A DNA stretch of 63,123 nt, filler included, from Reclinomonas americana ATCC 50394 (Eukaryota), in assembly GCA_048213135.1 (NCBI GenBank). It is 11 parts of 11 records of this genome, joined end to end, with 100 filler letters (N's around TTAATTAATTAA, not from the genome) between each part and the next. Parts side by side here need not be neighbours in the genome. Positions count along the whole stretch, not along the records: positions 1 to 4,453 come from AFZH01018905.1; positions 4,554 to 14,361 come from AFZH01018908.1; positions 14,462 to 16,380 come from AFZH01018909.1; positions 16,481 to 31,649 come from AFZH01018910.1; positions 31,750 to 38,430 come from AFZH01018911.1; positions 38,531 to 41,781 come from AFZH01018912.1; positions 41,882 to 44,104 come from AFZH01018913.1; positions 44,205 to 45,876 come from AFZH01018914.1; 3 more parts are not named here. One strand, 5' to 3'. Positions 75 through 62,100 of this stretch are shown in pieces; within the stretch, counting starts at the first letter, position 1; each line of letters begins with the position of its first letter. A program made the position numbers and the translations under genes. The notes below the pieces were generated by a model. It was not told the origin of the DNA. It searched no databases and was given only the letters and a program-made list of their open reading frames with translations.

Positions 75-1245
75 CCCATGTCGTCGTCCGACGTGAGCGC
101 CGGCGGCGACGACGACGGGCTGATGATGGACTCGGTGATTGTCGGCACCTCGACTGATCTCGAAAAGGAATACTTGCGCCTCACAGATGTGCCGGACCCG
201 ACCAAGGTGCGCCCCGAACGCATCCTCGTGCAAAGTCTCCGCCTGGTCAAGCGCAAGTGGCGAGAGGATCACAACTACAAGTACGCGTGGCACCAGCTGA
301 AGAGCATTCGACAGGATCTCACCGTTGCGTGTTTTGTGTCTGTTGGATGCACTTTCTCGTGCTCATTGTGTACTGCGCTGCTCAGGTACAACGCATTCGC
401 AACGAATTCACAGTGGAAGTTTACGAAACGCACGCACGCATCGCTTTGGAGCAGGTGTGTGTCGCCGATGCGTTCTCCCCCTCTGTGTTTCGGTGCTCAT
501 GCCGCACTGCAGGGCGACGTTGGCCAGTACACACAGTGCCTGGGCCAGCTGCTCTCTCTGTACAGCAGTGGCCTCGACGGGCACGTGGTGGAGTTTACGG
601 CGTATCGCATTCTGCACTCGCTGTATTCCAAATCGGCACGAGGTATGTTGCACGCACTGCGTTGAATCATCAGTCGCCTTGCTCAATTGGGCGCAGAGGC
701 CACCCTCTTGCTTGCATCCTTGTCGGCCGAAGACAAGAAACAGGAAGCCATCAAGCACGCTCTGGAGGTGCGCGCCGCCCTCGGCCCCGCAGACATGAAG
801 TTCCCCGGCATTCTGGACTATCAAAAGTTGTGTGCCAAGAGAATGAGTGATTGACGAGTCAACAGACAACTCACAATGCTGGAAAATCGCAGATTCTTCC
901 GACTGTATCGCACAGCGCCTAACATGGGAGGCTATCTGATTGACGTGTTTATTTCCAGAGTACGAGTGCGCGCACTGAAGATGATGTCACGATGGTGTGT
1001 GTGTGCGTGTGCGCGCGCGCGTTGCCTTGATTGCAGCCACGCCGACACACTTTCCTCATTCTGACGCACACAGTTACCGCCCGACGCTCGACCTGTCGTT
1101 CCTGCAACAAGAGCTGGCCTTCGACACGGATGCGCTATTGTGCGACTGGCTGTTGGAGCTCGGCGTCCCACTACCACCTCGCAACACACCACGATTCGAC
1201 TGCGTCAAACTCGCCGAGTACGTCAACAGATTACCGGAAGAGTGA
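75..1245 (+). CDS. LENG8: SAC3/GANP-family protein LENG8/THP3-like; C-terminal exons only, 5' end upstream of the window
   Basis: Spliced translation IVGTSTDLEKEYLRLT..PDPTKVRP..LKSIRQDLT|VQRIRNEFTVEVYETHARIALEQ|GDVGQYTQC..EFTAYRIL..FFRLYRTAPNMGGYLID matches remembered THP3/LENG8 motifs. GT-AG introns include 324-385 and 827-892; TGA at 1243-1245. Confidence 0.9.
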
Positions 1246-1367
1246 TTCCGCACCACCACCACCATCACCACCGTCACCAGCACCACCAACACCAAGTTCC
1301 ACTTGTTCCTTCTCCTCTCTTGACCTTTCTTGTATTCCTCTTTTTTCTTCTTCTTCTTTCTCTCTTT

Positions 1368-1699
1368 GTACGACGACGCGGACTTGCCTGCCGTGCCCTG
1401 CACCGCTAACCGCGCGCTGTGGAGAGCCCTCCCCGATAACTGCAGCGTGCGGAAAGTCGCAGGTTGCACGGTCGCTCTCCCCCTCGCCCCCCTGTTTTGC
1501 TCAAGAGTTACGTTGGCGCACCGTGTCTCGGTTTCACTGCATGCACAGGTTCCACCATCTTGGTGTCGGAGGGTGGGGGACGAGCGAGGGGAGAGTGACC
1601 GGCAACCGCGGCTTGGTACGAATCGGGGGGTGGAGCAAATCTCCACGCGCGCAACTCGCGTGTGCCAGGGCATGTGAGCGCGGCACTCCCTCGTCGTAC
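1368..1699 (+). ncRNA. Putative structured RNA: long imperfect rod/hairpin of unknown family
   Basis: Nested complementary blocks: 1368-1376/1691-1699, 1393-1400/1666-1673, 1411-1425/1640-1651, 1429-1437/1622-1630, 1454-1467/1602-1614 and 1469-1487/1584-1601. Non-Watson-Crick pairs in the stems are G.U on the + strand. Confidence 0.6.
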
Positions 1700-1940
1700 C
1701 TTTGTGAGAGTTGGGGGAGAGATGGGATAGGAGACGAAACAACAACAACAACAACAACAACATTTCCAGCATGGTGGGGCTTGGCGAGTGAATCAATCGC
1801 ACACAACGCAGACAACGTGGTGGGTTTTGTTCATGTTCCCATTTTGTGACGTCTCTTCGTCCCTCTGCGTCTCTTCGCGTGAGCGCGACTGCATCAGTCG
1901 CCGACGCAGCAGGCAAGCGGCTGCTGGCACCCCCACTCAC

Positions 1941-2939: not shown

Positions 2940-4324
2940 ATGAGCGGAGCACACAAGTGGGCCGACGAGACAGAAGACGAGCTGCCTGCGGTGCCTGGCA
3001 GCACGCCACCTTCCTCCGCGCCCATTGCAGTCAACAAACCAGCTGCAACCGCGACAACACCACTCACAGGTGACACGCACTCTCTCTCACACACACACAC
3101 TCACACGCACACTTACACGTGCGTGCAGGCACCTCGCCTGTCTCTGGTCACCTCACTGTGACACAATCAACTGCTGCTGCTCTCTGGGGCGGAGGTGGAG
3201 ATGAGGGCTCGAGCAGACGACGTTGCGCTCTTCTCTCTTTGTGTGTGTGTGTCTCTCTCTCTCTCTTTACTCTTACATGCATGCACACGCAAAGGTGGCG
3301 GAAGTGGCAAGCGAGAGCGCTCACCAGCCAAGACAGAAGAGAGGAAACCAGCAGCAACAGCAGCAGCAGCGACAGCAATGCGGTGAGATGCGCTCTTGTC
3401 AGTCAGTGTCTCTCAGTGCGACTCACTGTGCACGTGTCGCAGTGCACCTGCTCCTCCTCAGCAACACCAACACCAACAGCAGCAGCAGCAGCAGCAGCAC
3501 AGGCAAGCAGCGACCAGGCCGACTGCTGCTGCTGCTGCTGCAGTGAGCGAACCACCACCTGCACCACCAGCTGCGTCGTCGGCTTCGTCGTCGTCGTCGT
3601 CGAGTGGGAGTGGAGGTGGACGAGCGTTTTCCACCAACTTGAGTCTGGAAGATGTTGCGGCATTTCACGAGCATATGTATGATTGCCTCCTGCGCGTGCG
3701 TTTCTCACTCGTGTGGGATGGTAGATCCGAGCGGCGCAGTTTCGATTTGCGGACGAGCGCGACTGGCACCAATATCACAATCCGCGCAACCTGCTGCTGG
3801 CGGCGGTCGGAGAAATGGGTGAACTGGCCGAGGTGCTGCTTGTGGAACGAGATCGTCTGTCCACTTGGTCATCAGACTGACTGCTTGTGCAGCTGTTTCA
3901 GTGGCGCACGGATCAAGAGGCTGCACCGGGGCTGCCTGGCTTCTCTGTCGGTATGCATGATGGCACTCACTCATCTCTCTTTTTCCCTCTTGACTGTTCA
4001 TGGCTTGGTGGTGCAGCGGAAAAGGAACGCGTGGCGGAGGAGATGAGCGATGTGATGGTGCTGCTCGTGCGCATGGCGGATGTGGCGGGGTTGCGTAGTT
4101 ACACTCTTGTGCTGTTTGTGTTGTTGACGCCGCTCACTGTGCATGCCGTGCTCGCAGAATCGACTTGTCGACAGCAATCCCCAAGAAAGTCGCTGCCGTT
4201 GCGTGCATCGGTAGTTAGTGAGCTTTGCGTCTTGTCCTCTGCACACACTGTGCCGTTGCAGAATGCCGTCAAATACCCGGCGGAGCGCGCCAGGAGCCGA
4301 CGCCAAAAGTACAACGAATTTTGA
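2940..4324 (+). CDS. DCTPP1: dCTP pyrophosphatase 1 (MazG-like) with a long low-complexity N-terminal extension
   Basis: Spliced LSLED|IRAAQFRFADERDWHQYHNPRNLLLAAVGEMGELAE|LFQW..EEMSDVMVLLVRMADVAG|IDLSTAIPKKVAA|NAVKYP; TGA at 4322-4324. Confidence 0.92.
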
Positions 4325-4944: not shown

Positions 4945-7526
4945 ATGGACTTGTTCGCGACGCTTGCACGTGGCGCGCGATTCAACAAGCATCGTGCGAC
5001 TGCCGCAGCCAGCAGCACCACCACTACCACTACCACTACTACCACAACAACGACGACTGCGGCAAAGTCGAGTGCCGGCGGAGGAAAGCGAGGCACGGTG
5101 TGTGTGTGTCTTTGTCGCAAGTGCACATTCACATGCACAGAAGCGCACACAGCACGCGCACACGAGACTGACGCGAAAAGAGCTGCAGGCGAATCCGTTT
5201 GCGTTGTCGGCGGAGGTGGAGCGGGAGCTGGACTTTTTTGGGACGTTGCCGACGAGTCGGGAGCGGAAAGAGAAGGAGGTGGAAGATGAGGAGTCGAGTG
5301 ATGATGACAGTGAGGAAGAGGAGGAGGAGGAGGAGCAGCCTGCGCGCAAGAAGAGGCGGTTGAGTGATGCGCTGTCGCTGGAGCATGTTGCGTTGTGTGA
5401 TGCGTCGACCTCGGCAGGAGCACAGGGTATTGATGTTTGTGCAGGTCAAAGGTCTGCAACGACGTGCTCGTGTCAAGGTGCAAGGCGACGACGTGCCGTT
5501 GTCGATTTCGTCGTTTGATGAGCTGGCAAAGTGCGTACACATGCGGGCGGTGTGCGTTTCTGGTTGGCTGGTCGCGTGCTCATTGGTGAAGACAGACTCG
5601 GCTTCAAGGACTACCTGCTGCGCAATGTTCGTGAGGGGGGTTTCACCGAGCCGACACCCATTCAGATGCAAGCGATTCCGTTGATCTTTGCGGGGCGCGA
5701 GCTGCTGGCCTGCGCACCCACGGGAAGCGGCAAAACGTTGGCGTTTTTGTTGCCGATTCTGGCCAGTTTGAAGGCATGCACGCTTGCGATCTGTCCTCAT
5801 TTTTCATCTCAAGTCACTCACCATGTGTGGCAATGCAGGCGCCGGCCGAGGAAGGCTTCCGCGCGCTCATCTTGTCGCCGTCGCGTGAGCTGGCAGAGCA
5901 GACGTACCGCGAGTGTGTGCACTTTGCACGCGGTCGCAAGTGGCGCATCTGCCTGTTGACCCACAAGAGCACGTCGAGTGCGACCTTGTCGTCGAAGAAG
6001 CAAGGTTTGCGTGTGTTATCTCTTCACCCTCTGCAATAACATCCACGGCACTCACAAAGAGGGTGCGCGATGCAGACATTCTAATCTCCACGCCGCTCAA
6101 GTTGGCGCATTTCTTGCGTCTCGGTGTGATCAAGCTGCAAAAGTTTCGCACGTCGGCTGCATTCCGTGCCCTTTGCACCCACTTACTCACTGTGACGCAC
6201 CACAGTGTGAAGCGTGTGGTGCTCGACGAGTCCGACAAGCTGTTCGAGCTGGGCTTTTTGGAGCAGGTCGACGAGATTATTCATGCCTGCTCGAATACGG
6301 GCATTCAGCGCAGTCTCTTTTCGGCGACGCTGCCGACTGGTGTGGAGGAGATGGCGCGTTCGTTCCTTGTGGATCCCGTGCGCGTCATTGTGGGCTACAA
6401 GTTACGACTCCACACAAACACGAGCAGGTGCTTGTCGCTGTTGCGTCGCTGCTGACGTGCGTGCATGTGCAGGAACACGGCCAATGAGTCCATCAAGCAG
6501 CGTCTCGTGTACGTCGGTCGGGAGGATGGCAAATTGCTGGCCATGCGACAGTTGATTGCGCAGGGAGTGCGGCCGCCTGTGATTGTGTTTGTGCAAAGCG
6601 TGGACCGCGCGAAGCAGCTGTATCAAGAGCTGGCGTACGAGGGTCTGAGCACGGATGTGATTCATGCGGAGCGCTCACAGCGGGAGCGCGACGAGGCTGT
6701 GGCGAATTTCCGTCGAGGGAAGACGTGGTTCTTGGTGGCCACCGATCTCTTGTCGCGAGGTGTGTGTGCGCAGTGGTGGGAGGTGGTGACGCGTCGTCGT
6801 CGTCTCACTCCGCCGTGCAGGACTGGATTTCAAGGGAGTGCAGCTGGTGATCAATTATGATTTCCCACAGTCGGCCACCAGCTACATTCATCGCATTGGT
6901 GAGGAAGATGGTGGAGATTGTGGAGAGTGCCAAGAGATTGATGATCTGACTGCTGCTTGATGCGCGCAGGTCGAACGGGTCGTGCCGGCCGCCCGGGCGA
7001 GGCTGTGACGTTCTTCACCGATGAGGATGCGGAGGTGCTGCGGTCCATTGTTAATGTGGTGCAATCGAGTGGCTGCGAGGTGCCCGACTGGATGTTGCAG
7101 CTGCGGAAACCCAAGTTACGCACGCGTGGCGCGACCTGTGAGCCATCACCCCGCACCGTCTCACTTCCTTCGCCAAAATTGTTACAGTGGCATGGTCAAG
7201 AAGCAGCGCAGTATGTTCCCGGTGAAGCGCGACAATATCTCTGCCGTCTCCGACTGGGATCTGAAGCGTGCCGAGAGGAAGCGGTGAGCGCATTGAATGC
7301 AGTGACTTTGCAATCGTGCCGACACGCTCACTCTCCGTGATGCAGGCACTTTATCAACGAAAGCACTGGCCGCAGTGGAGGTGGCGAAAAGGACCGATCG
7401 AGAAGCAGGTCGTATTCTAGCGGCATGGGCGACAGAGCTACCAGAGGTGGTGGCGGCGGTAAGCGCGGACCGCGGAAGACAGAAGTGGCCGGCACGAAAC
7501 GCCCGAGACCCACAGCAAGAGAATGA
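4945..7526 (+). CDS. DDX52: DEAD-box RNA helicase DDX52/Rok1
   Basis: Motifs: N-terminal [14 protein letters not shown] motif [48 protein letters not shown] and C-terminal [10 protein letters not shown]. About 12 introns; TGA at 7524-7526. Confidence 0.95.
5774..5838 (+). other. GC-AG intron in DDX52
   Basis: AAG|GCATGC...CTCAC...TGCAG joins LASLK to [14 protein letters not shown] in frame. Confidence 0.8.
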
Positions 7527-7842: not shown

Positions 7843-10800
7843 ATGGCGCTTGCCTCGTTCCGTCCCGAAGAAGCGCGCGATAAGCTCGGGCAGCAAGCGA
7901 CTCTGCTCTTGCGCGCACTCGACGATGGTCAGTCCTTTCCACTCACTCTTCCCTCTCTCTCTCTCTCCCTCTCACACACGCACACGCACACGCACAGACG
8001 AACACGGTGTGCCCACGCCACTGAGCAACCGACTAACTGCTCTGCTGCGCTCTCTGCTGGAGGCTCTTCGACTCATGAACGTTTCGCGCGCAGCACCAAC
8101 ATGCACTGAGTGTGTCACTCTCTCACTGACAATGATTATCAACAGCTGTCGCTGCCCAGCGACTTCTTCAGTGACTTGGTGATCCGCGAGCCTCCTCGAC
8201 TCGACGCCAGTGAGACCACTCCGCGCAGAGAACGTCTGCAGTTGCATGTGGCCACTGTGCTGGAGGTCGTGCATGCAGACGACACTCATGGTGCGTCTTC
8301 TCTCACTCGCACTCTCACCTTCCTTCAACGCTCGATGGAGCTCACGCAGCAGTGCGACACACAGAGAGCGAGTCACCGATGAAAACGCTGGGGCGATCGG
8401 TGGCCGAGATCATGTTGTACTTGCGATCGGCGCTGACGGACATTGGCGTTGGGGTCGAGGCGATGCGAGTGGAGATGGAATCGACCCGCAGCTCGTTTCG
8501 CTTGTTCTCGTGTGGACGATCGCCTGCCGAGGACACGCCGACGATGCGCAGGCTGTCGCTGCAGGTGGACGAAGGTGCGGCACTTGTTGCCTTGGCGAGT
8601 GAGCAACCGAGTCTCTCAACTTTGCGCATGCGCAGAGCTGGTGGCGCTGGAGGGCATTGTGAACGCGTTGCATGGCGCAGTGGTGTTTGTGCCGACAATG
8701 GTGGAGGTGCTGAAGTTGCGGAGTCACTTCAACACGGCGCTGTTGTTCGACGATCCGGCCGTGGCCGCCTTTTGGAACTCGAAAGTCGGGCCGACGGTGT
8801 GTGCTGTGCCGCACAGCGTGACGCTCGCAGCGCATCTCAACTCAACGGTGTGTATGGGTGCGCGTGCAGCAAAAATACGTCTGCTTTAGCGAGCTGCAGA
8901 GGGCGTACTTTGCGTTCATGCGCACTGCTCGCCAGTACGACGGCGAGCCGGCACGACATGCTCTGTTGCGCGGATATCCGACCTTGGGCTATCCCCGCGA
9001 CGACAGTGATCCGTGTGTGCTTTTGCAGCGACTTTTGCAGCGGTTCGGCCATCTGGGCTTCGCAGGGTGGGACAGTAGAGAAAGCTGACTCTGTTTCGTG
9101 GAGCAGGTCGCTCAAGAAGATGCACGCCACCGATTTGGTGAGCAACGTCGAGTTCAAGGAGCTGATTCAGAAGAGACACCGTGCTGTCGGACAACGATTG
9201 GCCGACGCCGACGGCTTGCTGGCGCTGCTGGCATCTCTCGTGCAAGGTGGAGTGCTGTTTGAGGTGCTGGTGTTTGTGCTGCCGGCGCTCACACCCTTGT
9301 ACACTGCAGACGAGAAGCGAGTGTTGTTGAGTGCACAGGGACTGGTGATGGGCGAGCCGGCGTTGAGAGTGCGTGACTTTGTGTGGGCGGAGGAGGAATT
9401 GCCCTCATGCTCAATTTCGTTCACTTGTTTTTCTCTGCAGTCGCTGGCTTCGACCATGTTCACCTCGGTGGGCGCACCCGACTGGCCCAACCTGCATCGC
9501 TTTCTTGGCCCAGCCGTGAATTGGTTTGGTTCGTCCACTGTTAGGTTGAGAACGAGAAACGATAACACTCTCAGGCGCGCCTCACGTTTCTCCTCTCGGC
9601 AGTGAACTGCTTTCCCAAACTCGTGCAACGACTCGGTGGCGAGCCGCCGACTATGACCAAGATTCTCGAGACACTGGCAGAGGTGGCGTCTTCTCTACAG
9701 CTCCCTGTGCTCATCTGCCTCTCGCCCTGCTCACACTCCCGCAGGTGGTACCACGGTGGAATGACGCAGCACAGCGTGCGAGCACCGCATATTTTTCTCG
9801 TCTGCTGGACGTGCAGGATCGCCTCCGTCGCGCGCTGGTCATTCTCACAGATGCACTCGGCTACGGCGGTGACATGTCCGAGTTGCAGTCAAACGCTTCG
9901 GTGAACTCTGGACCATTGAGTGCTGCCCATGCGACAGCGGTGAGTTTCGATGACGATCGCTGTGCCACATCTCCGCACAACTGATTCTCATGCATTTTTT
10001 TGGTTGCACACAGGATGCGCACGGCCTCGCAACGTTCCTTCGCTGGTGCCTGAATCCAGACAGTCCAAAGGGCGAGCCGCTCTACGAGAATGGCGCTTGG
10101 ATGGACGACTGTTGCGTCTCACGCTCGTGTCACACCGTTTCTCCATTTTCCTCACCCTCACGTGTTACTGTCAGTGCTCCTAATGGCCTCCGTGTCGCCG
10201 TTCGGTGCCAGCTTCCCGCTGCCGGTCGCCGTTCTGCTGGAGTTGTGGTCCATGTTCCGGACTCCGTTCCTCATTCAGGCCCTGGCGCCGTCGCACATGT
10301 CGTCAGCAGTGTTGGTGCGAATAAGCGGGTCGATGACTACGCAGTGCATGCATCTGCTTAACAGCCGTCGCCTCCATCACAGCTCATGGCGCTGCCTGGC
10401 CGCCGCTCTCTGTTTGATGCAGCCGACTCGGTGCGAATTCGGGATGCAAGCGGCCGCGTCGTCGCGGAGCAGCACATTTCTGCACAGCATGTCCTGACGG
10501 TGTGTAGCATGTGCGCCTCTCTCGTGTGAGACGCAGGGTGGAACTGACGCGTGCTGCATTTGGCCAGGTTCGTCATCGCCACTTGCTGGTGGTCAACATC
10601 CCAGTCATGGCGGCGTCGTCGGGAGTCGTGCGAGCGGAGCTGGCGCTGCGGCAGCAACTGGACGATGCACAGTTGCGCTGTGGCTCCGCCGACTCATCTC
10701 ATGTGCTGCCCTCTTGCCTGATTTTGCTGCGCAGCTCATCGGTGCCTGTCGAGAGCACGGTTCCTCTTGGTCGCGCACTGAGCATGCGCTGCGCTCCCGA

Positions 10801-13437
10801 AAGCACCATGGCCGATCGGCTGTGTCGCATCTATTGCATGCCCGAGTACGGCATGTCGTCGTCCGCCACGGCCATTGCCGCCGCCATGCGCGATACTCCA
10901 CGCTCGTGGCCTGTGGTGAGTGGTGACTTGCTTGCTCACTCTTGACTGTTTCGGTCCACTCAGCGTTATTGTGTGCGACAGGCCGGTATCTATGGCGCGC
11001 TCGTCCACCGGCGACTGACAGTGACCGTCACACGACCGCGCGGTCTACAACTCTCGTATCCCGCCCTCGGCTTGTGGAGGGCGAGGAGACAGCCTTCCGG
11101 CACTCTGTTGCGTCCACTGTTTCCCGGCGGTGTCTTCAAACGCGAGTGTTGATTTTCACTGAGTGCATGCACCAGAGCTCTGCAAGGCGAACTGCTTGGA
11201 GTGCACACACTGACGCGGTGTCCGGACGAAACTCAGACGCTCACCTTTGCCGTGTCGGTCACCGATGGTGGCTTGTCGCTCCGCGATGAGGCGGTGCACT
11301 CGGACTGGCATCTCGTTGCGTTGGTTGCATATGCTGGAAGCGCCTGGTGCCACTGCTAACATGTGTTGTCTTGGTAGGTAATCCCCTGGTCACATCCAAC
11401 CCACGCCCACGAGGCGTCGTCCGAGATGCTCATGATTGGCATGCTGCAACGAGAAGAGTGAGCCTGTTCCGTCCATGACCACTTGCTTGTCGTGTTGGTC
11501 TCACTCACGTGACGCGCAGAGTGCTGGTACTGGAACAATCGCACGCCTTGTCGCCACATCACGCGGGAGAGACCGGCAATCCAGTTGCGTCGTGCTGGGA
11601 GATCTTGTTCGTGTTCCGCCCTCGTCCTCATCACCCCCTGCCGCAGGATACTCGCTACCGACCCCTCTTCCTTCCATTTTCCGATGTGCTGCACGTGCTG
11701 ACGGCAACATCGCCGGCGCTCTTGATCAATGCGCGGGAGGACGTGAAGGTGGAGGGTGCGGCGCACGATCTCTTCAGCTTGTGCAATGGACCGCCCGAGC
11801 AGGTCACTTTTTATGCAGCTGTTTGTCTTCCCCACCTTGTGCTCACCTCATTTCGTCTCACGCAGGTGACCATGCGAAGTGTGAGTCGCAGCATGGCTGT
11901 GGAAGGTGCTTTTTCCATATTGTTTCTCCCTTTTCGTTTCGTTGGCTTTACCTGCCTCACCGCGATCTGTCGCAGCCGCGTTGCCGCAAACACTGCGCGA
12001 AGTGCGTCTGGTTGCGCTCCGCGATCAGGTCTCCTTGCGTGGCGGTGATTTCGGAGTGCAGCACGGCCGGCCGTATTTTGTGCATGCCATTGATCGCCAG
12101 CGCGAGTTGGTGTCGATTCTCGGGAACTCCGGAGTGTTGTTGAGATTACCGGCCGCCGCCGTGTACCTCGTGGGGGACGCCATGCAGTTGGTGAGGCGCA
12201 GCTGTCGCCCGCATTGAGTGCGTGGGGAAAATGTGTGGCGTTCTGACACTTTGCGCGTGCAGCCCCTGACGAGCGCGACCTTGTGGCACACGACAGACGA
12301 AGGCGACGAGGAGGGCGACAGTCGAGAGGTTTGCGATCCATCCCCCCACTTGCCCTCTGTCAAGACTTGTCTCTCTAAACAGTGTCGCCATGCCCCATGC
12401 ACAGGGTGGTGCCAGCACAGGTGCGTTTCTCTCTGTGCTATGAAATGGGGAGGGAGAGGCGCTCACACATCGTGCGCTACAGATGTCCGAGGATCGCCCG
12501 TGGCCGAGTTGATGGCGGACGAAACCGGGCAGCCTTGTTTGCAGGCGCGCTTTGTGGCCTTCCACGAAGTGTCGGACATCATATCGGCGTCGCCACCGGC
12601 GTCGGCGACATCCGAGTCACCACAGTCGCACCCGTCGTCGGCCTCCACACCACCGTCGCGCCAATCACGATACTTGCCGCCGACGCCCGACATTATTGCC
12701 AAAGTGGCCGCCACCACGGCCGCTGCCGCCGCTGCCGCCGTGAGCAATCGACGGAACAGTCGCACCGGTCAGACCGACGTCGCCACAATGACGGCGGTGA
12801 TGGTCGCGGACTCGGACGATGACGACGACATGGTGGAGGTGGCAGGCTACGAGGCCGGATACGCCGACGACTTGACGCGATCACCGGAGCACATTCCGGT
12901 CGAGGTGTGCGGTCTGGACGTGGACATTCCACAGCGGCGACTCCCGCACCACCAGCCATCACGCGGCCGCCCACAACCGCCCATCACCTCGTCGTACCTC
13001 TCCCCGAAATCGCTGCTGCAGACGCAACAGGCGCAATCCGCACCTCCTCTCCGCCACCCAACCACGCGTCGCACCCTACGCACACGAACGCCACCGCCTG
13101 CTCCCCTCGACCGCAAGTACATGTTGCGTCGCAGCCACACACAACCACACACGCAAGACAGACAGATGTATTCACTCGGGGAAGTGTCACACGCAGCAAT
13201 GGCCACCACAGCTTCGACAACGACGATGCCTCCTCCAGCAACGGTGGCGTGCTGACTCCCCTGTCACTGCCCTTTCACCACCACCAACACCAACACGACG
13301 GTGACTACCCCACCGCCGTCTCTCTGCTCACCACCGAGGACGACGACGACGATGACGCACTCAGTGTGCACACACTAGTGGCCGCCGATCAATCGCCCGC
13401 ACTCGACGCCACCGACGACGACGAGCTTGTCAAGTAA
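7843..13437 (+). CDS. Large multi-exon hypothetical protein with a helical N-terminal/central region and a low-complexity C-terminus
   Basis: Starts MALASFRPEEARDKLG. Exons chain in frame through many GT-AG introns to TAA at 13435-13437. No family recognised; it could be more than one gene. Confidence 0.6.
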
Positions 13438-14583: not shown

Positions 14584-17266
14584 ATGCCGAGAGTGTACCG
14601 AGTGCGCTGGTGCATTCAACGCGCTGTGGCCTTTGGTCAAGAGGTGGGCACATGCACTCCTCCACATTCACTGTGATTCTCTCTCTCTCTCTCTCTCTCT
14701 CACTCTCTCTCTCTCTGACATGATGCTTGCAAAGGTGCGACTGTGTGGCGAGTTGGGCAGTGTTCGCACACACACCTCGCATCCTCTCTCGTGGAATCCA
14801 CACGAAAGCGCAGTGCAGTTGCACTGGAGTGCGGGTGACTGGTGGACCTCTGAGTTGAGTGAAGAGTGAGAAAGAGAGAGAGACGAGAGATTGAGAGATA
14901 TTGAGAGAGAATGAGGGACAGATAGAGAGAGAACAGAGAGCCTGAGAGCCTGTGTGTGAGAGAGAGAAGAGAAAGACAACTCACTCCCTCTGTGTGGACA
15001 ACAAACAGCGAGGTGCAGCTCACTGTGGATGATCACGCGGAGGAGTTCGTCGACACTGCTGCGCTGCCACTGGTGGTGTACAAGTACTGTGTGATGGGGG
15101 CGCAACAAGAGCATGACGGAGGCGATGGATGCGTCTGGGAGGGTGCCTATGGTCTCGATCGGGAACTGTTAGCACATGAATCGCTGTGGGTTGCCACGCC
15201 CGTCTTGTCTCCTTGTGCGTTCTTCTTCTTCTTCGTCATGTTGTTGGTTGGTGCGCGCACTCATTGTCTTGGCCAGTTGTCATTCGCGATCATTGGGTGG
15301 AGTCTGGCGCGGAGAATGTTGCGCTGTAGTGTGAGCGTGTCTTTGACCTGTTTCTCCGAGCGACTCACCGCGTGCACAGTTTTGGCGATCGTCGGAGCTG
15401 CAAGTGTCGCTGGATGAGGTGCTGGCGACTGTGTCGATGATGTCGGAGGATGAACTGGGCGATGAGTCGTTGGTGTGTGATTGTGTGTGGTTTTTCCGAC
15501 CGTTCCAGCCCTCGCTGGTGTCGCTGAATCAGTCCACGTGCAGGTGGCGACGTATGTTCGTGTGCAGTGCTCACAAGTGGTGCGACACGCTCGTGGCGAC
15601 GATGAGTGGCCAGTGGTGGTGCTGCAAGGAACACTGGAGCCGCTTGGTGTGTGCATGTGCTGTGATGGGAGTCCGTTCCTGCACACCAAGCTCACTTGTG
15701 TCGGATTAGGTTGCTGGGGCAGCCGTTCACCACCCGGCATTCAACTGGCGCCACTGGGCGACGGCGGAGTGTGGCACTGCTGTGTCTCATTACCCACGGT
15801 TGCCGTGGACGACGGTTCTGCGCAGTTGCGTTGGTCATGGAGATGTGTTTCTTCATTCTCGCTGCTTACGTCTTCTTCCATCCAGATACAAGTACGCCGT
15901 GTGCACCGCAAGAGGTGCGCGCGCAGAGGTTGCGTGGAAGGATCTGACGTGGGAGGAGGGCGAGAATCGTACGTTGCAAGTACCGCAGGCTCTCGTGCGC
16001 GTCGAAATTCCCGACGATGGCAGGTTCGTGGAAGCTCTTGTACTCACAGTGGTCGTGTTTGTTCTCTCATTCGTGTTGTTTCTGTCTTCGCGTGCAGTTC
16101 GCATGCTGGTGACGGCGCATTTGCGGCTCTGTCACGCGCTCATCAGCGATCCGCGGCGGTGCGACAGTTGCGACCGGTGGTGGTGATGGCCGACTTTCCA
16201 CTTCGTCATGTGCCGCGATACGAAATGCCATTCCGCGGCTTGCACAATCCCACAGGCTCCATTTGCTACGCCGCATGTGTGCTGCAGGTGCGAGCGTGTG
16301 ATGAGAGCCGCGAGTCATGCACGTTGTGTTCACCAATGTGTCGCACAGACCATGCTGCACACCGAGTACGTGCCAGTGCANNNNNNNNNNNNNNNNNNNN
16401 NNNNNNNNNNNNNNNNNNNNNNNNTTAATTAATTAANNNNNNNNNNNNNNNNNNNNNNNNNNNNNNNNNNNNNNNNNNNNCGAGGAGGGCCATTTGGTAC
16501 GCGCGCTGGCGCCTTACCTCAACGCGGCGATTGGTGTCGAATGTACCGACACCATGTGGGACGATGCGCGACCACCGGAAGAGCCTCACATGGTGAGTGT
16601 GCAGCGCTCAACGGTGCACTCTACCCTATTTGGGAATGCTGAATGCGCAAGTTTGAATAGGTCGGTGGCAGTCACGTGATGCTGCTGTGGGAGATGCCGC
16701 AGGTGTTGTGCTGTTTCGTGACTGGCTGGTACGAGAGCGCCAGTTTTATGGAGCACGTGACGGAGCACGCACTGCGGAAGGTGTGTTCGCACAGCGCGAA
16801 TGATGGCGTCTCACTGCCCTCTCTCACCCTCTGCAATGACGCAGAAACACTGTTCGCGCGGCCAGGGTTTCATTCGACCACCCATGTTGTACTTTCGCCG
16901 TGGCGGTGCCGAGCCGATGCATGCACGCTACGAGCTGCGAGCGTTACGTATTCTCCTTCAATGCGCGAGTTTTCCCTCCTCCTTACCTCCTCCTCCTCCT
17001 CCTCCTTGTGCGCAGCGTCATTATGCACACGGGATTCGAGCTGGACGGTCACAACTTTGTGTACGTCAGACCGCCGAGCCTGCGCACGTGGCTGGTGATG
17101 GACGACGAGCGAGTGCATCGCGTGTCGGAGGCGACCGCCGTGGGCGAGCACATTCCCGATCCCACTGCCGTTCCTCGTGCGTTGTCCTTCGCCTCTTTGT
17201 ACACCAAATTCGTTCACGGTACTCACTCTGTTGGGCGCAGATTATCTGGTGTACGTGCGGGTATAG
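14584..17266 (+). CDS. Ubiquitin-specific protease (peptidase C19) with two N-terminal CBM20 starch/glycogen-binding domains; spans gap 16381-16480
   Basis: CBM20-1: VRWCIQRAVAFGQE|VRLCGELG..WNP..AVQLHWSAGDWW..YKY..VWEG..DR. CBM20-2: VVLQGTLEPLG|CWG..GVW..|YKY..TWEEGENR. Cys box: GLHNPTGSICYAACVLQ. His box: YELR|SVIMHTGFELDGHNFVYVR..WLVMDDERV. C-terminus HYLVYVRV*, TAG at 17264-17266. Confidence 0.8.
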
Positions 17267-46900: not shown

Positions 46901-49042
46901 GAGTTGGTGCAGGCGGCACCGACGGCCGAGAGCACCACGACGCACTTCGAGGCGGAGAAACAGGCCACACGACGAGCGCGTTCTCTTTCTGCCATTGTGA
47001 ATCCGGTACGATGTTCACGAACGTGTCGCTGTGTTGCCCTTCACCTGGTCTGACTGCGTTGCGTCACAGGCGCCCCCTCCGTCGGCGGTGGAGGCGGGTG
47101 CGCCGCCTATTGATGTGACAGTGCCGCCTGATCGCGACGCGGACACACCTCCGATTAGCAGTCCTGCCTCACATGACTCGCTGGAAGTACCGTTGCGTCA
47201 GCGCACACGCACACGCGCGCATGTCAATCGATCGATTGATGGTATACTTATCATGCATGCAGACCGTCGCCCATGAACCGCGTGGAGAATTCCACACCAC
47301 CACAGCGACTGTCGGTGACGCACATCAATGCTGGCGACCTGGTGGAGGAACTGGCCTCGAGTTTGCGTGATCTGAAGGCCGAGTGTGCGGAGCGCGAGCT
47401 GCACGGCGTCGTAGGTACGTTGTGCACCTGCTGTGCTCTCTCCGCAATGATATCGAGACTCACTTCACACTGCGACAGGCGTTCGAGATGCTCACGGCTA
47501 CTATGTGGTGGCCCCAACGGCGACTCTGGCGCTGCAGGCGGTGAAACTGATTCATGCAATTCTGACGGATCGTGTGCGGGTACGGAATCCTTGCTCGCCC
47601 TTTTTCCCAGTTCGTTTAGTTTTGCTGAATGACTGGAGTGCTGTGCAGGAAGCGTATGACGTTTCCGGTGATCCGCTCCGCATCCTCAGTCAAGTGCGAT
47701 CACCCGACGCCGACGCTGCCTTCCGCGACTTTTACTCCTTGTCCAGTTGCGCTGATCCATTCAGACATACACGTGCCAGCTATTGATAATCATGCCTCTC
47801 AATCCGTGTATTGCAGATGTGCGCAAGCTTACCGAGGCGCAGTTGAACCGCCTCGGGCTGCTGCTGTTTATTCAGTACTGCCTGAACCAGCGCTTCTTGT
47901 CGACCATGTTGCAAATCGCGTTGACAACACCTGGATTCGTCGAGACCACGTACCATCCAACAGCACTGATGGCGAATCCGGCCGGACTCGATGATTTGTT
48001 TGGCGTACTGGCACTGCTGTTGCAGGTGTGTGTTTGTGTGTGTGACACCGAGAAGATAGCCTCTCTTGCGCTGGGCCTCACTGACACGTTGCGTGTCTTT
48101 TGCATAGTTTTCTTTCTCGTTCAAGCTCGGAACGCGAGACGCCCCTACTCAGCCCAAGCCCGGTGCGTTGTTCTTTGCGCTTTATATTACGTGTGTCAAT
48201 ACGCCGTATTGACGGGTTGTTTTGTATCTTGCAGTTGCTGCTGCGGTTGGATTCGAGGCTCCGTTGGTGGCTGTGGTCAAGGCGATTGCCAGACACTTTG
48301 TGCAAACTGGTCAAGCTCGCGATTTGGTGCGTCCTGTTGTTGTCGTTGATGATGATGTGTGGAGTGCTAATCGATACGTGTGCCGCCAGAAACTGCTTGG
48401 CGATGATTCCATCACGCCGGCCATCACTGTCTTGGTGCGCGGTGACTTGTGCACTGCGGTGGCCACGGTGCTGTCAATAGGGTTCAAGGCGAAGCGTCTG
48501 TTTGGTTCGAATCATCTGTGGGACATGTTTGTGCGGGCATCCAAGAACGCAAGAGGCCTTGGTGTCACTCTTGCCACGGCGGTCTCCAGCATTGACGATC
48601 TGGTCGAGAGAAGTCTGCGCTCCGGCGACAAGGACGTCAAGTTCCGCACACTCGTTTGTCACGCACTCAAGTTTCGCAGTCGCCGCTTCCGCACACTCCC
48701 GATGACACGCCTGTTTATCACTCACGCACCACCACCCTCTGCGTTTGCAGCACTCATGTGTTGTGTGAATTCCTGAGCGCGGTGTTGTCGGACAGCGACA
48801 TTTTGGAAAGATACTACGAAGAGTCGTCACCGTTCTGGCAAGCAGGTGCAATTGACGCGCTGCAGCGGGCGTGTGGCAAACTTGGTGAGCTTCTGTGGTC
48901 GCGGTGGTGGTCGTGAAGACAACCGGCAGTGACTGACATGACCTTGTGCACAGACAAATTGCCGTTCCGCCTGGCGTTGGACCGCGAGTTGGACTCGGAA
49001 GACGCTGGTGCAATGAGCGGCGACGATAGTGATGAATGGTAA
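40976..49042 (+). CDS. PH - Ser-rich - two myosin-I TH1-like - helical/UVR-like - RUN-domain protein; contiguity across three gaps is inferred
   Basis: PH: GWLHKQGGAIKTWKRRWF..RTYTFLAE..WVEAI. TH1: LVMSDIVEKENKRGKRQARLL and VLFSVLLAKVNHRDTKQQRYLCITDATVY..SEYDIMF..RAEII. RUN: LCTAVATVLSIGFK..HLWDMF..KFRTLVCHALN..ILERYYEESS. TAA at 49040-49042. Confidence 0.65.
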
Positions 49043-52286: not shown

Positions 52287-55200
52287 ATGTTCAATGCGAG
52301 TGTGCCCTCAGCCTCTGTGGAGGTTGTCGACGATGAGCTGCTCGCGGGTGCGTGTCNNNNNNNNNNNNNNNNNNNNNNNNNNNNNNNNNNNNNNNNNNNN
52401 TTAATTAATTAANNNNNNNNNNNNNNNNNNNNNNNNNNNNNNNNNNNNNNNNNNNNAATCTCGTTACTCCCACGCAGAGTTATGTGTGGGAGGCGCTGGG
52501 GCTGAAGCTACCGAAGCAGCTGGATCCATCGTCCGCCGTGTTGGACGGCACCGAGGTTGTGCGGCTGTGTCGCCAGAATGAGACCTTGGTGTGTGCCTTC
52601 CCTCTCTTGTAGTGTAGCCTCACTGCAGATCGTCTCACGTACACACACACACAGAGACCTGTGTTTGGACAAATGTCGCGATTAGAGTTGCTGGTAGCCG
52701 ACGTCTTCAACCAGCACGGACAGGCGGCTGAGAATCTGATTGCTTTGCATCGTGCCACGCTCTTCTGGCTGGCCTCCGACGATTCACTCACTGTGTGCGA
52801 CGCGTTGCCGAGTGTGCGTCGCTTCGCCGACGCCGAAGCCAACTTGCTGGCCTTGTATCCGCACGTGTTGCACATGCTCATGGCCAATGTCCGGTATCCA
52901 CTGGAGGCACTGAAGAGTGCCGCAACGCGTGGATTGGAGTTTGCACTGGATCACCTTGGCTGCACGTTGCGTTTTGCAAGACAAAATGTTCCGCTAGACG
53001 GCTGACTTGCTGGCTCACCTGTGTACGATGCAGCGTCGGTCCCGTGTATGCCGACCTTGTGCGCACGCTTCTCGAATCGTATCCGAGCACGATGGATGAC
53101 CGACTCAACCCGATTCTGTTGGTGCGGACGCCGAGGAGTGTGCGAGCCAAGCGACCTTCCAGCGCCTCTCACGGTCGTAGTCGATCTGCGTCGGGCATTG
53201 TGGACGATGTGCTACTCGGCAGCGGCGGCAATGCGAGTGGTGGCGATGGTGGTGGTGGTGGTGGTGGTGCAGTCGATGCCGGCGCTGCGGCCATGGCACC
53301 ACCGCACTCACCCGACGAGACAAGCCCGCTTTCGCCAGGCGACTTGGACGGCAGTCCAGCCATCCCATCGCCGACAGAGTCTGGAGATACGGATGCGGCG
53401 CCGGCTGCGGCAGTCGCGCGCACCGATCTTCGGATTCCGCTCCCACTCCTTGCTGCAGCAGCTGGGTACGTGAGGCGTGTGCGCAGGTAGTGCATTACTT
53501 GTGATTGCTGCTCATCATGCGAGGAATATCAGCGACGGCGAGAAGCAGCGTGTCGCCGATCACTCAGCGTCCCTGCGCGTATCACCTGACGGTAGTGGCA
53601 GCAGCAGCAGTGGCAGTGGCAGTGGCGGTGACGCGATGGATAGTCGCAGCAGAGGTGGCGCTGCAGGAGAAGGTCCGCGCCCCATTGTTAGCACTGGTTC
53701 AGGTATGTGACCGTGGTGTCTTCATCACACCGGGTGGCTGGAGTCGATTCACGAACGTTGCAGACGTGACAGAGACGGGCAGAGCTGGCGGCCCCACATC
53801 GACGTACTCGTCGGCACTCATTGATGCATTCAATCGCTTGCTGGAGACGTGCTTCGATTTGTTGCCACACTTCTCGCGGACGGTGCTCGCGGAGTTGATC
53901 CAGAACTGCTTGTGCCCAAAATTCCTCCATGCGACACTGGCGAGCGAGGTTGGGTGCTGTCGCAATCAATAATCTTCATGTGCACTGCAGACTGTCTCAC
54001 TTGTTGTGCACTCTCCGCTGGTCAGCTTGAACTGCAGGTGATGCGGTTCCTGGTGGTCGCCCTCAACCGAGTGCAAGGCGATGTCAGTCTCCCATTCCAA
54101 GTGCACGACAAGGTTATTTGTGTGTGATGTCCATCGGTGTACATTCGTCGCTCATTCTTGTTTTCGGTGCAGGTGTTGAGCATGCTGCCGGAAAGCAGTT
54201 CGTCAGTGACCCGCAACGCCGCACACAAATTGTGGGCCGCACTTTGCCAGCACCTATCTCGTTGCGTCGACGTTTGAAGTGATTCCGAGGCCGTGCATCT
54301 CTCACTCTTGCCTATGCAGAGTCACTGTGTGCTGTGTCAGTGCGCGAATTCGCCGATTGGGTCGAGATTTGGTTGAAGCGCATTAGCGCACATCACATTG
54401 CGGGAGCGGACGGCGGTGACAGCAAGGCCGCTGCGGATGATTTGCGAAGCAGTGGCGGTGTCAGTTTCGTGCCCGCATGTGCGTCCCGACAAGTCAATGA
54501 TTCCCACATTCTCTTGTTCACAGATCGAATCATGAGCCTGTCGGTCACCGACTTGGTGCCACGAGCGGTCGTGGAGCTGCTGCAGTTGGTGTGTGCGCAG
54601 GTGGCGTGGCATCTGCAGACGTCACGTTTTTCCGGTGACGCAGCCTCGGACAGGCAGATACAGTGCACTGTCGCCATGGCGAAGAGTGCTGTGGAATTGT
54701 GTCGGTGTTTGCCACCGCTCATGTCTCTTCTCGAGTCCATGGTAATTCTACTTGTCGGCGACGTGCACACTTGGTAAACTCAACGAGTGTTTGCAGGCTG
54801 TGTCGCCTCCTGCACAAGCGGCTGGGAGCAATGACGTTTCTGAGTTTGCCTTTGTGTGGGCGACGGTGGAGAGTGTCTGCCTCGCCATTCCAGGTACTCG
54901 CAGCGCTGGTGGCGCGACTGAGTGCTCTTTCTTCTCACATGGCATTGTGACACAGCGCCGTTGGTGCCCGCTGTCGACAAGATGCTTCTGCCGTTCGTCG
55001 ACAGCGCATACGAGTTTTGCAGGCACTCGTCGCCTCCTCAGGTGGTACTGCGAGCGTTGGAGGTCGTCCTACGCTGCTGCATGCCAAATGCCGAGTGTGC
55101 GAGTCGACTAGTCGACTTTCTGCTGGTGTTCTGTCAGGTGCATTCCTCTGTCCCTGCAACGACCGACATGGGAGATGTGATGTTGACTGTGAATGGCAAC

Positions 55201-58200: not shown

Positions 58201-59063
58201 GAAGCAATGTGGCAGGCGGTATCAAACTCGCTTGTTCCCTCGCGGCGCTTCACCATCCACCCGTGGTGAAGGAGTGTTTGGCCTTGAGTCTGATCGACAA
58301 GACATTGGTGACGTGCGACCGTATCGGTCTCAGTCGGCTGGCTCCGGCCGCATTGGCTACCGCTTCGCGAGAGTGCGTCATTTTTTCTTTTCCCCCACTA
58401 GTGTGTCGATGGTGCTGGCGAATGCTGACTGCCGCGCAGCGACCATCACGCGATGGGTCGATCGGTGGCGCGACTGCAGCAACCATGCAGCCGCTCAAGA
58501 AAGTCCGCCGCAAGAAGTCGCGCCTGCGTCCATCCTGGCGACTGAGTTGCGTCCGCTGAAAATGATACCGCCAGGTTTGCGTGTGCAAAAAATGCCGCAG
58601 TGACTGAACTGCGAGGCCTCGACGACGCAGATCGCACCTTTGGTCCCGAAGCTCCTTCACAAGGCTTCGACGAACTTCGTGTCAGTGCTCCTCGACCAGA
58701 AGAACTCGCGGCGAATGCCGCTGTTATGGGACGCAACCACGCTGGAACCCCGATGCTGGTGCGTTGCAGTGCACATGACGCTCTCGTTCACCTCATCGTA
58801 TATCTAAAAAACTACGTTCACAGCGACCGGGGGCAGAGCCGTACTTCCATCCAGGTGGGGCGCCGTTGATGCACTCTGGCGTGTCGTCCGCGATGGGTGG
58901 CGGTGCGGTGGGCGGTAATGGTGGTGGCTCTGTGATGCCTGGCAGTGGTGGTCTCGCCGGTGATGGCAGATATCGGTCGACACCAATGCCCACTTTCGAC
59001 GACGACAGGCCGCAGCCAGTGGCACGATCCACGTATGCGGCAGCGCCTGGTCAGCGTGGCAGC

Positions 59064-59134
<71 letters not shown>

Positions 59135-62100
59135 GTGTGGTACTTTCTCTGCAAGTACGCCTCTCAGTCACATTGATTCGCTACGCAGTCGACCGCAAGC
59201 GCCCTCTCGAGATGCATTCGTGTCGATGGTGAACAGAGAGCGTCGACTGTATCAGGTATGCAGTGTAGGAGGTGACCCGTGCTCCAGTGTTTGTGGTTGC
59301 TGACCTGTCGCTGTGCAGCCGCCAGCGAGTCGTTCGAATGTGCGACCCACGTTTGCCGTTTCGTAAGCGACTTTAAGTGTTTTCTCCATGGGTAGCCTCG
59401 TCTCACGCGAGTTCGCTCTGTTCTGTGTGCAGCACCGGCAGCAGCGCATGGCCACTGCTGAGGGTGGCGACGCGGAATTCGTGTCCAGCAACCCGCCTTA
59501 CTACTCTCAGTCGTCGGTTGCGGCTCCGGCGCCTGGGTACGGCAACTGGTTCCCCAATGTGCCCATGCCGTATGGCTCGTATGGCGGTGGGCAGCCGGTG
59601 TTGCCGTGGAGTGGCGACCGCGGTGGCGGCGATGGCGGCGGCGACGGTGGACGCGTGTACGGTCGGGAGAGCGAAGATGACGTGCAATACGATGACGAGG
59701 AGGAGGTGGAGGACGATGAAAGCGGTGCGGCTGGTGAACTGTTCGGAGACGCGTATGGTGACGGCATGGATGAACGTGTGCCATATCTGGAGATGGGCGA
59801 TGGCATGTTGTACTCGGCGGCAGACTGGGGTCACGCACCTCCGCAGGGCTATTGGCCACCGAATGCCACTGCCGCCGCTCCCGAAGATTGGAACGACGAG
59901 GGTGATTGGAGTGAGCGGTGAGTGCGGCGACACAAACGTGGTGGCTGACTGTGGTCCTTGCTCACTGGCGATTGATCCGCAGAGGGCCGGGTGACTTTGA
60001 TGTCGGTGGTGGCCTGGACGACATGAGTCCCGATGGGTGAGCAAATCAGCAACACGAATGAGTATTCCACGTTGATCTAACTTCACACTCCTCCGCGTGT
60101 TCGACAGTTTCGAGCTCAATGCCTCTCAGTTCGAGAGCTACCTGCGTCAACTGCACTCGTCGCAGCCACAACCGCATCAACCGCCGCCGGCAACGCACTT
60201 TGGGTTGCGTGACACTGCTCTCGACGTGATGCTGCCAACCGTACTGATTCGTCGCGTTGTTGTTTGCGTGCACAGGCCCATGTATCCCGTTCGTCAGGCG
60301 TGGAATGAGCCGGGAGCAGCTGGCGCCGATGGTGGCCATGGACAGTCAGAAGCAGCTCATCGGTACAAGGAACATGAGGCACCACCACGTAAGCCGGCAG
60401 TCTCACCACCCTCCTCCGACGGTGACGAAGTGGAGTATCTGGTGCGTGACGGCGAGGGAGGGAGTGATGAAGCGGAACAAGAAGGACAGGTTTGTCAGTT
60501 TGTCGTAGCTGATCTGTGGCGTCGTGTGTGTTGAGTGTGCTGAGCGGGTGAGGATCCACTTCTTGCTGCAGGAGGCAAGTGTGTGGCACAATCAGCAGCA
60601 GCTACAGCAGGTGTGTATGCATGTCTATGTTTGCGAAATCGTGCTTGATTTTGTCCAACATACGAACTTTGTATTCTTGTGTGGACGAGCAGCACGCGGC
60701 AGCAGCTGCGGCGGCCTCGCGATACGCAGCTGATTCCGACTCGCCGCCCCCCGACTATGACCCGTTGCGTCGGTGTCTCCTAATCGTTTTACTCGCAGCG
60801 ACACACGTCTCACATCCCCTCTCACTTCTGTAGTGACGAGCGCGCTGGCGCCGACGATATGCAACTGGAGGACGCCGAGCAAGAGGACTCATGGACGGCA
60901 GATGTCTTGTCGGAGCGGAACCTCATGCGACACACGTCAGCCGGTGCGGTTTTTATGCGTGTGCATCAGCGCGAGTACCGTTCTGCGCTTACAGATTTTG
61001 CCTCGATAGTATCGCCAGTGCGCGTGCGTGCTCCGCCGTACGTGGACGTACATGATGGTGTCGTCGACATTGGCGATGGTGGCAGAGGTGTCGACCAGAG
61101 TGGTGGTTTGTACTCGCCGTCATACAGCGCCGACGCCGAGGACTCGGACAGCGTGGTGAAGAGCGAGTCGATTGACTCGGAGCTTGCTGATGCGCACTTG
61201 GTGCGTACACGAAAGCACCGACACACCGACACATGCACACGCACACTATCCGTTCTGCGTCTGCTGACTCATTCCCGGTCGTGTCTGCAGCGACCGTCCG
61301 CCGCTGCCGCGAATCGCTTGCAGTCGTCGGTCGGACGCAGTTTCGTACTCATGATAGCTCCCCTCCTCACCCTGTGGCCCTCTGCTCACGGTCTACACCG
61401 CAGGAGCCAATGCGCCTTCGCCGACACGCGCCGGATACTTTGTCGAGACTGTGGGCTCGCGAAACTCATCACAGGGAGTGAGTATTTTTTTCTCGGCCGT
61501 TTTTGAAGCGGAACTTTACTGACGGATCGCACTCGCACAACAGGGACGCGCTGCTAGGCCACAGCCGCGAAGGCAGTACCAGAAGGGCACGATTCCGGAG
61601 AGCGAGTTGGAAGACAGTGATGTTGCGTCTCGTCACCCTTCCCGTCGCCTCCCCTGGCGCCATATTCATGTACGCGCCGGCTTGCAGGAGGATGTCGACG
61701 ATGCCGAGTACCTGTACGTGGAGGGCGCATTGGATGTGCTCGGCCCGGTGACGATTGAAGACCGCATCGGCATGGGCCTTCCGCATGGTGTGCGCGTCAC
61801 GTCCGACATGATTGCGTTCCCGGCGGCCATGGAACCCGTTGACGGCGACTCCGGTTGGGTCGTTTCTCCACCGCGCGTGCACGCTCCAACCGCAGCCCCT
61901 GGCTCTCGGAACGGTGCGGGCCTCTTGGCGCAGCGGCCCGTGGATGCAAATATTCATCGTGCGTCGGCCTTTACGAGTGTGGCACACGGCGACAGCGACA
62001 GCGGCAGCCATAGTGACGGCAACGGAGACGACCATGCTTGGAATCGGTATCCCGCGGCACAACACGACAGCGAAGAAGACTACGAGGAGGAAGAGGAGGA

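Follow-up and report, generated by a model that had tools for sequence, protein, structure and literature searches.

The 63-kb window of Reclinomonas americana ATCC 50394 analysed here (63,123 nucleotides (nt) from assembly GCA_048213135.1) raises the question of how the spliceosome reads introns whose 5′ splice site carries its conserved G one base late. The first-pass annotation of this window described at least 23 introns that begin with GTT and then R-H-G, mostly as GTTGCGT, and proposed that they are recognized by U1 small nuclear RNA (snRNA) in a register shifted by one base. All of our evidence comes from this one window, which consists of 11 contigs, and from homologous proteins. We defined the class as GTT donors with G at +6 and no G at +5; donors with G at +5 are referred to as ordinary. 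The data show that an abundant second class of GT-AG introns exists, amounting to about one in five and mostly starting with GUUGCGU, and that its exon, intron and phase profiles lie one base away from the ordinary ones.

An abundant second class of GT-AG introns

Introns were called using a custom Viterbi gene finder that scores codon log-odds and intron composition together with matrices for the acceptor and the branch site, all trained iteratively. In an agnostic pass any GT was accepted as a donor, and GC at a penalty. This gave 196 introns on the + strand (GTG 81, GTT 70, GTC 25, GTA 16 and GC 4), with 37 class donors, 94 ordinary donors and 61 others, and the commonest donor heptamer was GTTGCGT (16 cases). 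A mixture pass with a two-component donor model, learned without supervision, returned 194 introns, including 41 class members. The class therefore makes up 19-21% of predicted introns, and the union has 46 members, more than the 23 that had been given as a minimum. The earlier introns were only partly recovered: 16/23 exactly in the agnostic pass and 17/23 in the mixture pass, the rest being missed. As a control, 33 introns were called on the reverse strand, with three GTT donors and no GTTGCG. The class pattern is found in 37/192 called GT donors vs 159/4639 other + strand GT sites (odds ratio 6.7, p=3e-16), and unsupervised two-component expectation-maximization on the donors returned '.caGTTGCGT' (35%) and '.aGGTGcGT' (65%).

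The class word is also conspicuous in the DNA itself. GTTGCGT occurs 38 times on both strands, compared with 17.0 +/- 4.4 times in 100 dinucleotide shuffles, none of which reached 38. The + strand has 35 of these and the − strand 3, the chance expectation being about 8.5 per strand. When the third base is varied (GTxGCGT), the +:− counts are 35:3 for T, 12:4 for C, 7:13 for G and 0:1 for A, so that a strong + strand bias is seen for T alone, and TTGCGT alone is found 56:12 in favour of this strand. For GTGAGT the two strands are balanced (40:46), probably because the branch site of + strand introns has the word (A/T/G)CTCAC(T), which reverse-complements the GTGAG donor word (ACTCAC for GTGAGT) and so hides a bias of the donor.

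Apart from their donors, class introns look like ordinary ones. Retention would break the reading frame in 33/37 class and 83/94 ordinary introns, a yUnAy branch motif is present in 34/37 and 78/94, C is found at acceptor position −3 in 36/37 and 85/94, and both have a median length of 70 nt. Their termini, together with frame restoration in the DDX52-, reductase- and SAC3/LENG8-like models, identify them as U2-type GT-AG introns. The U12-type 5′ splice site consensus is of the RTATCCTT type; TATCC is absent from all 46 members, in which GTT precedes G, A, T or C, so U12-type introns were rejected. Introner-like repeats were rejected as well, an all-against-all blastn of the 46 introns having given only simple-sequence matches of 10-16 nt.

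Homologs were compared using a custom protein-to-genome spliced aligner whose splice rule was GT/GC...AG only (reductase-like, 9; DDX52/ROK1-like, 15/41; SAC3/LENG8-like, 20/150). The first-pass annotation had placed 12 of its sites in recognisable proteins, and homology or alignment bears this out for 324, 827, 3654, 6401, 7115, 23933 and 24105; apart from 3654, all of these lie in open gene models that are collinear with homologs across the site. The DDX52-like model has 11 introns and encodes an open 600-amino-acid protein that aligns without gaps at every junction. This includes 5387, although that donor was chosen in only 1/14 spliced alignments; the N-terminus around it is poorly conserved. 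In 15/19 homologs the spliced aligner passed over 827 for an in-frame donor at 800. The 827 donor, however, retains a conserved N-Y-H-type motif (DYQ/K in the multiple sequence alignment (MSA), the solidus marking the junction) that the 800 donor would remove, and the window gene has an 8-residue insertion upstream of this motif.

The DCTPP1-like open reading frame (ORF) 3725-3877 was aligned with 2oie/7mu5 from the PDB. The alignment reaches residue 2, five residues upstream of the acceptor taken by the finder, and the acceptor is therefore placed at 3724/3725, in frame with donor 3654. A homolog search with the DCTPP1-like exon gave no match at E<=1, the PDB search with the last exon was without a match and ORF 3881-4321 gave only weak stretches, so that the evidence for 4090 and 4198 is that of the gene finder. 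The sites at 14854, 15825, 37015 and 54261 were called in neither pass and have at most a frame reading, and 60764, also from the first-pass annotation, was called in the mixture pass only. The 'CBM20' label given to the gene at 14854 and 15825 was not reproduced by Pfam on single ORFs.

Displacement of the donor motif by one base

All 23 introns described at first do have GTT followed by R-H-G and, as was claimed, 4090 is the only one among them with G at −1. This depletion holds for the class as a whole: G is the last exon base in 3/37 class donors vs 65/94 ordinary donors (Fisher p=7e-11), and the class value is also less than expected from exons, in which G makes up 32% of the bases (binomial p=0.0007). 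A count that does not depend on gene models gives the same picture, with G preceding 3/35 of the + strand GTTGCGT words vs 22/60 of GTGCGT (p=0.003).

Comparison of the position profiles shows the displacement on both sides of the junction. The class profile at −1 resembles the ordinary profile at −2 (p=0.34) and differs from that at −1 (p=5e-10). Within the intron, class +4 resembles ordinary +3 (p=0.92) and differs from ordinary +4 (p=1e-10), class +7 resembles ordinary +6 (p=0.22) and differs from ordinary +7 (p=5e-7), and class +8 corresponds to ordinary +7 (p=0.85). Of the 55 donors with G at +6 but not at +5, 37 have T as the additional base. Codon phases 0/1/2 are 9/11/17 in the class vs 42/33/19 in ordinary introns (p=0.009), and a rotation of the ordinary distribution by one base makes the two agree (p=0.36). 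The same holds for the mixture catalogue (p=0.0004 unrotated, p=0.45 rotated by one).

Base preferences normalized to pattern-matched decoys are also similar in the two sets of donors. The log2 enrichment of A facing U10 of U1 is +1.3 in the class and +1.1 in ordinary donors, one base apart; that of T facing A3 is +0.7 and +0.9; and that of C is +0.6 in both. The class consensus within the intron lies one base further downstream, with G at +6, U at +7 and U at +3.

GTT donors that have G at +5 (GTTNG) retain the −1 G in 14/22 cases, and the effect therefore tracks the register rather than the T at +3. A simple insertion of T into GTGCGT was rejected as the origin of the class motif, as it would leave the −1 G in place, whereas this G is depleted. 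There are in addition AG/GTTTG(C or T)GT donors (for example 6005-6075 and 58575-58630) that look displaced by two bases, yet they keep both the +5 G and the −1 G and act as ordinary-register sites with U at +3 and +4.

Proposed pairing with U1 and alternative explanations

The displacement would be explained if the class motif were the ordinary (A)G/GU-R-N-G-U, from the last exon bases to +8, with the first intron G changed to U. The cut would then shift one base upstream, to the GU made by the former exon G, and the 5′ end of U1 would pair one position out of register: G+1 with C9, U+3 with A7, G+6 with C4 and U+7 with A3, while on the exon side A−1 would face U10 and C−2 would face G11. U6 and U5 would subsequently set cleavage at the sole GU present. 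We infer that U1 is the reader and has a 5′ end of the usual kind, and consider it rather probable, judging from sequence, that the class is read by shifted-register pairing of this kind.

The 70 GTT donors and 863 GTT decoys were scored by the number of pairs that they could form with a human-type U1 5′ end (AUACUUACCUG, taken from PMC4856993). Complementarity in the canonical register is not enriched in the donors (area under the curve (AUC) 0.51), and that in the shifted register is (AUC 0.65, p=2.5e-5). There are 6.32 pairs in the shifted register vs 4.08 in the canonical one.

Several results weigh against shifted pairing. It can barely be separated from a bulged register by the number of pairs (6.32 vs 6.35). 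With a human-type U1, class duplexes have a mean nearest-neighbour energy of −2.06 kcal/mol, as against −2.96 at random GT sites (AUC 0.36 for the class) and −5.75 at ordinary donors, and +1G pairs with C9, as the shifted register predicts, in only 7/37 minimum-energy duplexes. Two positions do not follow the displaced profile: C is found at class +5 in 76% vs 36% at ordinary +4 (p=5e-4), and T is nearly absent at class −2 (2/37), unlike ordinary −3. Finally, the finder was exact in 15/24 introns that were homology-based or built by hand (~63%; DDX52-like 8/11, SAC3/LENG8-like 4/5, and 3/8 in the reductase, where the benchmark was the eight introns supported by at least 4/9 homologs). Its errors were wrong in-frame donors and missed short exons; these add noise, and cannot produce a strand-specific word. 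The original proposal of +1-shifted U1 recognition is upheld in part, by the exon context, intron profiles and phases, which are all displaced by one base, but not by the duplexes with a human-type U1 5′ end, which are weaker than those of random GT sites.

One alternative is that U1 binds normally at G+1 and U+2, that one U of +2/+3 bulges and that pairing resumes at +4. GTT donors exceed GTT decoys in complementarity in this register too (AUC 0.62, p=4e-4), the pairs are as many as in the shifted register, and 68 predicted human sites are given for the bulge +2/+3 register in Table 3 of PMC4856993. A bulge would leave C9 free for a −1 G, however, and an unchanged exon profile and unchanged phases are therefore expected; instead the −1 G is depleted and the phases differ. 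We regard a bulge as quite unlikely, and the −1 G depletion together with the displaced profiles and phases therefore favours shifted pairing over a bulged U. That the class is read by a dedicated second U1, or by a U1 with an unusual 5′ end complementary to GUUGCGU, appears unlikely. The poor pairing of a standard 5′ end would be accounted for, as would the tighter constraint at class +5 (C 76-85%) than at ordinary +4, and a G at U1 position 5 raises the class AUC from 0.36 to 0.56-0.59 without loss of the ordinary class. Yet the class is explained by none of the 16 hypothetical U1s that were varied at positions 5 and 6, the best reaching an AUC of only 0.59 against decoys; the decoy-normalized preference for C is the same in both classes, and one standard C8-C9-U10-G11 stretch accounts for the exon preferences of both.

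The weak predicted RNA-RNA pairing and the 56:12 strand ratio of TTGCGT alone would also fit a motif that is read mainly outside the U1 register, by a U1 small nuclear ribonucleoprotein (snRNP) protein, by U6 or as an enhancer-like word UUGCGU, the shifted appearance being incidental. This we consider very unlikely, because the displacement is found on the exon side and in codon phase too and because the words that vary in the class (GCG, ACG, GAG and TCG) have their counterparts in ordinary donors. It is more improbable still that there is no special class, with donors misplaced or GTT reflecting plain degeneracy at +3. The finder's limited exactness and the 7/23 sites missed in the agnostic pass speak for this, but the 35:3 strand bias and the −1 G depletion are independent of gene models, homology fixes seven of the sites, donors degenerate only at +3 keep the −1 G (14/22 in GTTNG) and no repeat family is common to the 46 introns, whose longest shared matches are the short simple-sequence ones noted above. 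No snRNA genes, U1, U5 and U6 included, were found in the window using Rfam at gathering or E<=1 thresholds. The class may be read by a standard U1 with the help of snRNP proteins, by a divergent U1 or a second one, or by some other factor.

Human +1-shifted-register 5′ splice sites were reportedly described by Roca and Krainer in 2009, and the bulge +2/+3 register is said to have been described by Roca and co-workers in 2012. The window class resembles the human +1-shifted sites in that the ordinary consensus comes one base late after the GU and cleavage stays at this GU, with G+1 in place of exon G−1 and U+3 facing A7. Bulge +2/+3 sites share with it the GUU start and the consensus displaced by one base, but keep exon −1 paired with C9, whereas −1 G is depleted here. 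GUUUGU is the donor consensus in Entamoeba, and ordinary GUUNG donors, of which the window has 22, share T at +3 with the class but keep G at +5. The human shifted sites have A-rich, strongly pairing words such as GUCAAGUAU, in contrast with the GCGU-type words of the window, which are weak with a human-type U1. According to Tan et al. (2016; PMC4856993), who cite the 2009 work and re-measured such sites, the shifted register has been shown experimentally in human cells, and all validated non-canonical registers together account for 1.5% of human sites, compared with 19-21% of predicted introns in the window. The full-text literature searched gave no relevant paper on a GTTGCGT/GUUGCG splice motif and no precedent for an organism with shifted-register donors as a main class. 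The recognition mode is already known; what would be new is its far higher frequency and the weakly pairing GCGU-type words.

Whether this lineage routinely runs its major spliceosome in two registers, with about a fifth of its introns having U in place of the canonical G+1 and being cut one base upstream, is in our view evenly balanced. If it does, this would be the first organism with the shifted register as a main mode and not as a rare exception, and would call for genome-wide tolerance of a C8 mismatch by the U1 snRNP or else for a dedicated second U1, as well as for an interaction of U6 with the 5′ splice site that accommodates one extra nucleotide. The binding register of U1 is thought to be tied to the cleavage site, rare human exceptions apart. 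A displaced register in one of five introns would provide a natural experiment on how the cut is chosen at the hand-over from U1 to U6/U5 and on the mismatch tolerance of the U1 snRNP. Gene predictors with a single donor matrix would mis-annotate many exons here, as the custom finder did at 3654 and 23933.

Class introns and other features of the window

The class introns and candidates are given in Table 1 with the linkers. There are ten linkers, identical and each of 100 nt, and the window therefore consists of 11 joined contigs.

Table 1. Introns and candidate introns of the class, and linkers between contigs. Exon end, last three exon bases; finder, agnostic and mixture passes of the gene finder.
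Feature	Position	Strand	Exon end	Donor	Gene	Finder	Other evidence or remark
Intron	324..385	+	acc	GTTGCGTG	SAC3/LENG8-like	both passes	spliced alignment 20/20; MSA gapless at junction
Intron	827..892	+	aaa	GTTGTGTG	SAC3/LENG8-like	both passes	MSA support
Intron	3654..3724	+	gat	GTTGCGGC	DCTPP1-like	missed	PDB alignment support
Intron	4090..4157	+	ggg	GTTGCGTA	DCTPP1-like	both passes	
Intron	4198..4261	+	gcc	GTTGCGTG	DCTPP1-like	both passes	
Intron	5387..5444	+	cat	GTTGCGTT	DDX52/ROK1-like	both passes	spliced alignment 1/14
Intron	6143..6205	+	aaa	GTTTCGCA	DDX52-like	mixture only	spliced alignment 6/15; MSA gapless
Intron	6401..6472	+	caa	GTTACGAC	DDX52-like	both passes	spliced alignment 14/15; MSA gapless
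Intron	7115..7187	+	caa	GTTACGCA	DDX52-like	both passes	donor in 5/7 spanning homologs; MSA gapless
Intron	8081..8145	+	aac	GTTTCGCG		both passes	
Intron	10111..10174	+	act	GTTGCGTC		both passes	
Intron	10672..10734	+	aca	GTTGCGCT		both passes	
Candidate intron	11584..11646	+	cca	GTTGCGTC		mixture only	
Intron	13123..13196	+	cat	GTTGCGTC		both passes	
Candidate intron	14854..15008	+	tga	GTTGAGTG	USP-like	neither pass	frame-consistent by three-frame translation only
Candidate intron	15318..15379	+	aat	GTTGCGCT		mixture only	
Candidate intron	15825..15885	+	gca	GTTGCGTT		neither pass	frame-consistent, ...GSAQ joined to YKYAV...
Intron	16943..17015	+	agc	GTTACGTA		both passes	
Intron	18329..18391	+	tgc	GTTGCGTA		both passes	
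Intron	21547..21613	+	gct	GTTGCGTT		both passes	
Intron	23933..23996	+	gaa	GTTGAGTG	2,4-dienoyl-CoA reductase-like	wrongly took 23938-24079	spliced alignment 9/9
Intron	24105..24183	+	caa	GTTGCGTT	reductase-like	both passes	spliced alignment 7/8 spanning homologs
Intron	27108..27166	+	aaa	GTTGAGTT		both passes	
Intron	27869..27938	+	caa	GTTGAGCC		both passes	
Intron	28887..28943	+	aga	GTTGCGTT		both passes	
Intron	29242..29299	+	gaa	GTTGAGAG		both passes	
Intron	30360..30427	+	tct	GTTGCGTG		both passes	
Intron	32729..32804	+	gga	GTTACGTC		both passes	
Intron	34914..34985	+	act	GTTTCGTG		both passes	
Intron	35235..35411	+	gca	GTTGCGTG		both passes	3′ end uncertain, second GTTGCGT inside at 35349
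Intron	35869..35935	+	tga	GTTGCGTG		both passes	
Intron	36866..36933	+	agt	GTTGCGTC		both passes	
Candidate intron	37015..37084	+	tct	GTTGCGTT		neither pass (finder: 37010-37148)	3′ end read from sequence
Intron	37238..37308	+	gcc	GTTTCGTC		both passes	
Intron	43243..43335	+	aca	GTTGCGTG		both passes	
Intron	47192..47262	+	acc	GTTGCGTC		both passes	
Intron	47746..47816	+	cca	GTTGCGCT		both passes	
Intron	48641..48750	+	caa	GTTCCGCA		both passes	
Candidate intron	52966..53033	+	cac	GTTGCGTT		mixture only	
Candidate intron	54261..54319	+	ctc	GTTGCGTC		neither pass	finder took in-frame donor 54198, same acceptor
Intron	59358..59432	+	gcc	GTTTCGTA		both passes	
Intron	60764..60833	+	ccc	GTTGCGTC		mixture only	agnostic pass took in-frame donor 60773
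Intron	61340..61403	+	gca	GTTTCGTA		both passes	
Candidate intron	61622..61687	+	gat	GTTGCGTC		mixture only	
Linkers	4454-4553, 14362-14461, 16381-16480, 31650-31749, 38431-38530						N44-TTAATTAATTAA-N44
Linkers	41782-41881, 44105-44204, 45877-45976, 50226-50325, 52357-52456						N44-TTAATTAATTAA-N44

Two GC-AG introns were also seen in the homology comparisons. One (5774-5838, donor GCATGC) has the spliced alignment of 7/15 homologs and a gapless MSA, and the other (24328-24392, donor GCGCGT) was recovered by spliced alignment in 8/8 homologs reaching it.

The window has a G+C content of 57%. The best protein matches are at most 65% identical and the best metagenome loci 60%. Intron-containing genes lie on the + strand in all 11 contigs, which is unexpected for contigs in random orientation. 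A Pfam scan of 264 + strand and 14 − strand ORFs placed all Pfam-supported ORFs but one on the + strand, with matches to SAC3/GANP, DEAD and Helicase_C, UCH (weak, E 0.005), SPRY, short-chain reductase, Kelch, PH, myosin TH1 and RUN. The sole clear − strand gene (39307-41028) is an intronless open frame of 574 codons among intron-rich + strand genes. It carries a Methyltransf_24 domain (E 4.5e-13) and has a possible signal-anchor-like start at residue 161. Five start variants of this frame had no identical entry among the collected proteins.

Three further stretches were noted. Positions 3460-3556 form a low-complexity, hairpin-like stretch with about a dozen sub-threshold microRNA-type Rfam matches on both strands, the best of 29 bits vs a gathering score of 54. 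In the region 33009-33390 there is a 148-nt tandem repeat in 2.6 copies with GTTGCGCTGCGAAGAG in each, and gene models are poor there. Immediately 3′ of the stop codon of the DDX52-like gene lies a tandem array (7546-7739) of 8.6 copies of the 22-nt unit AATCCCAACCGAGGTTTATGGA.

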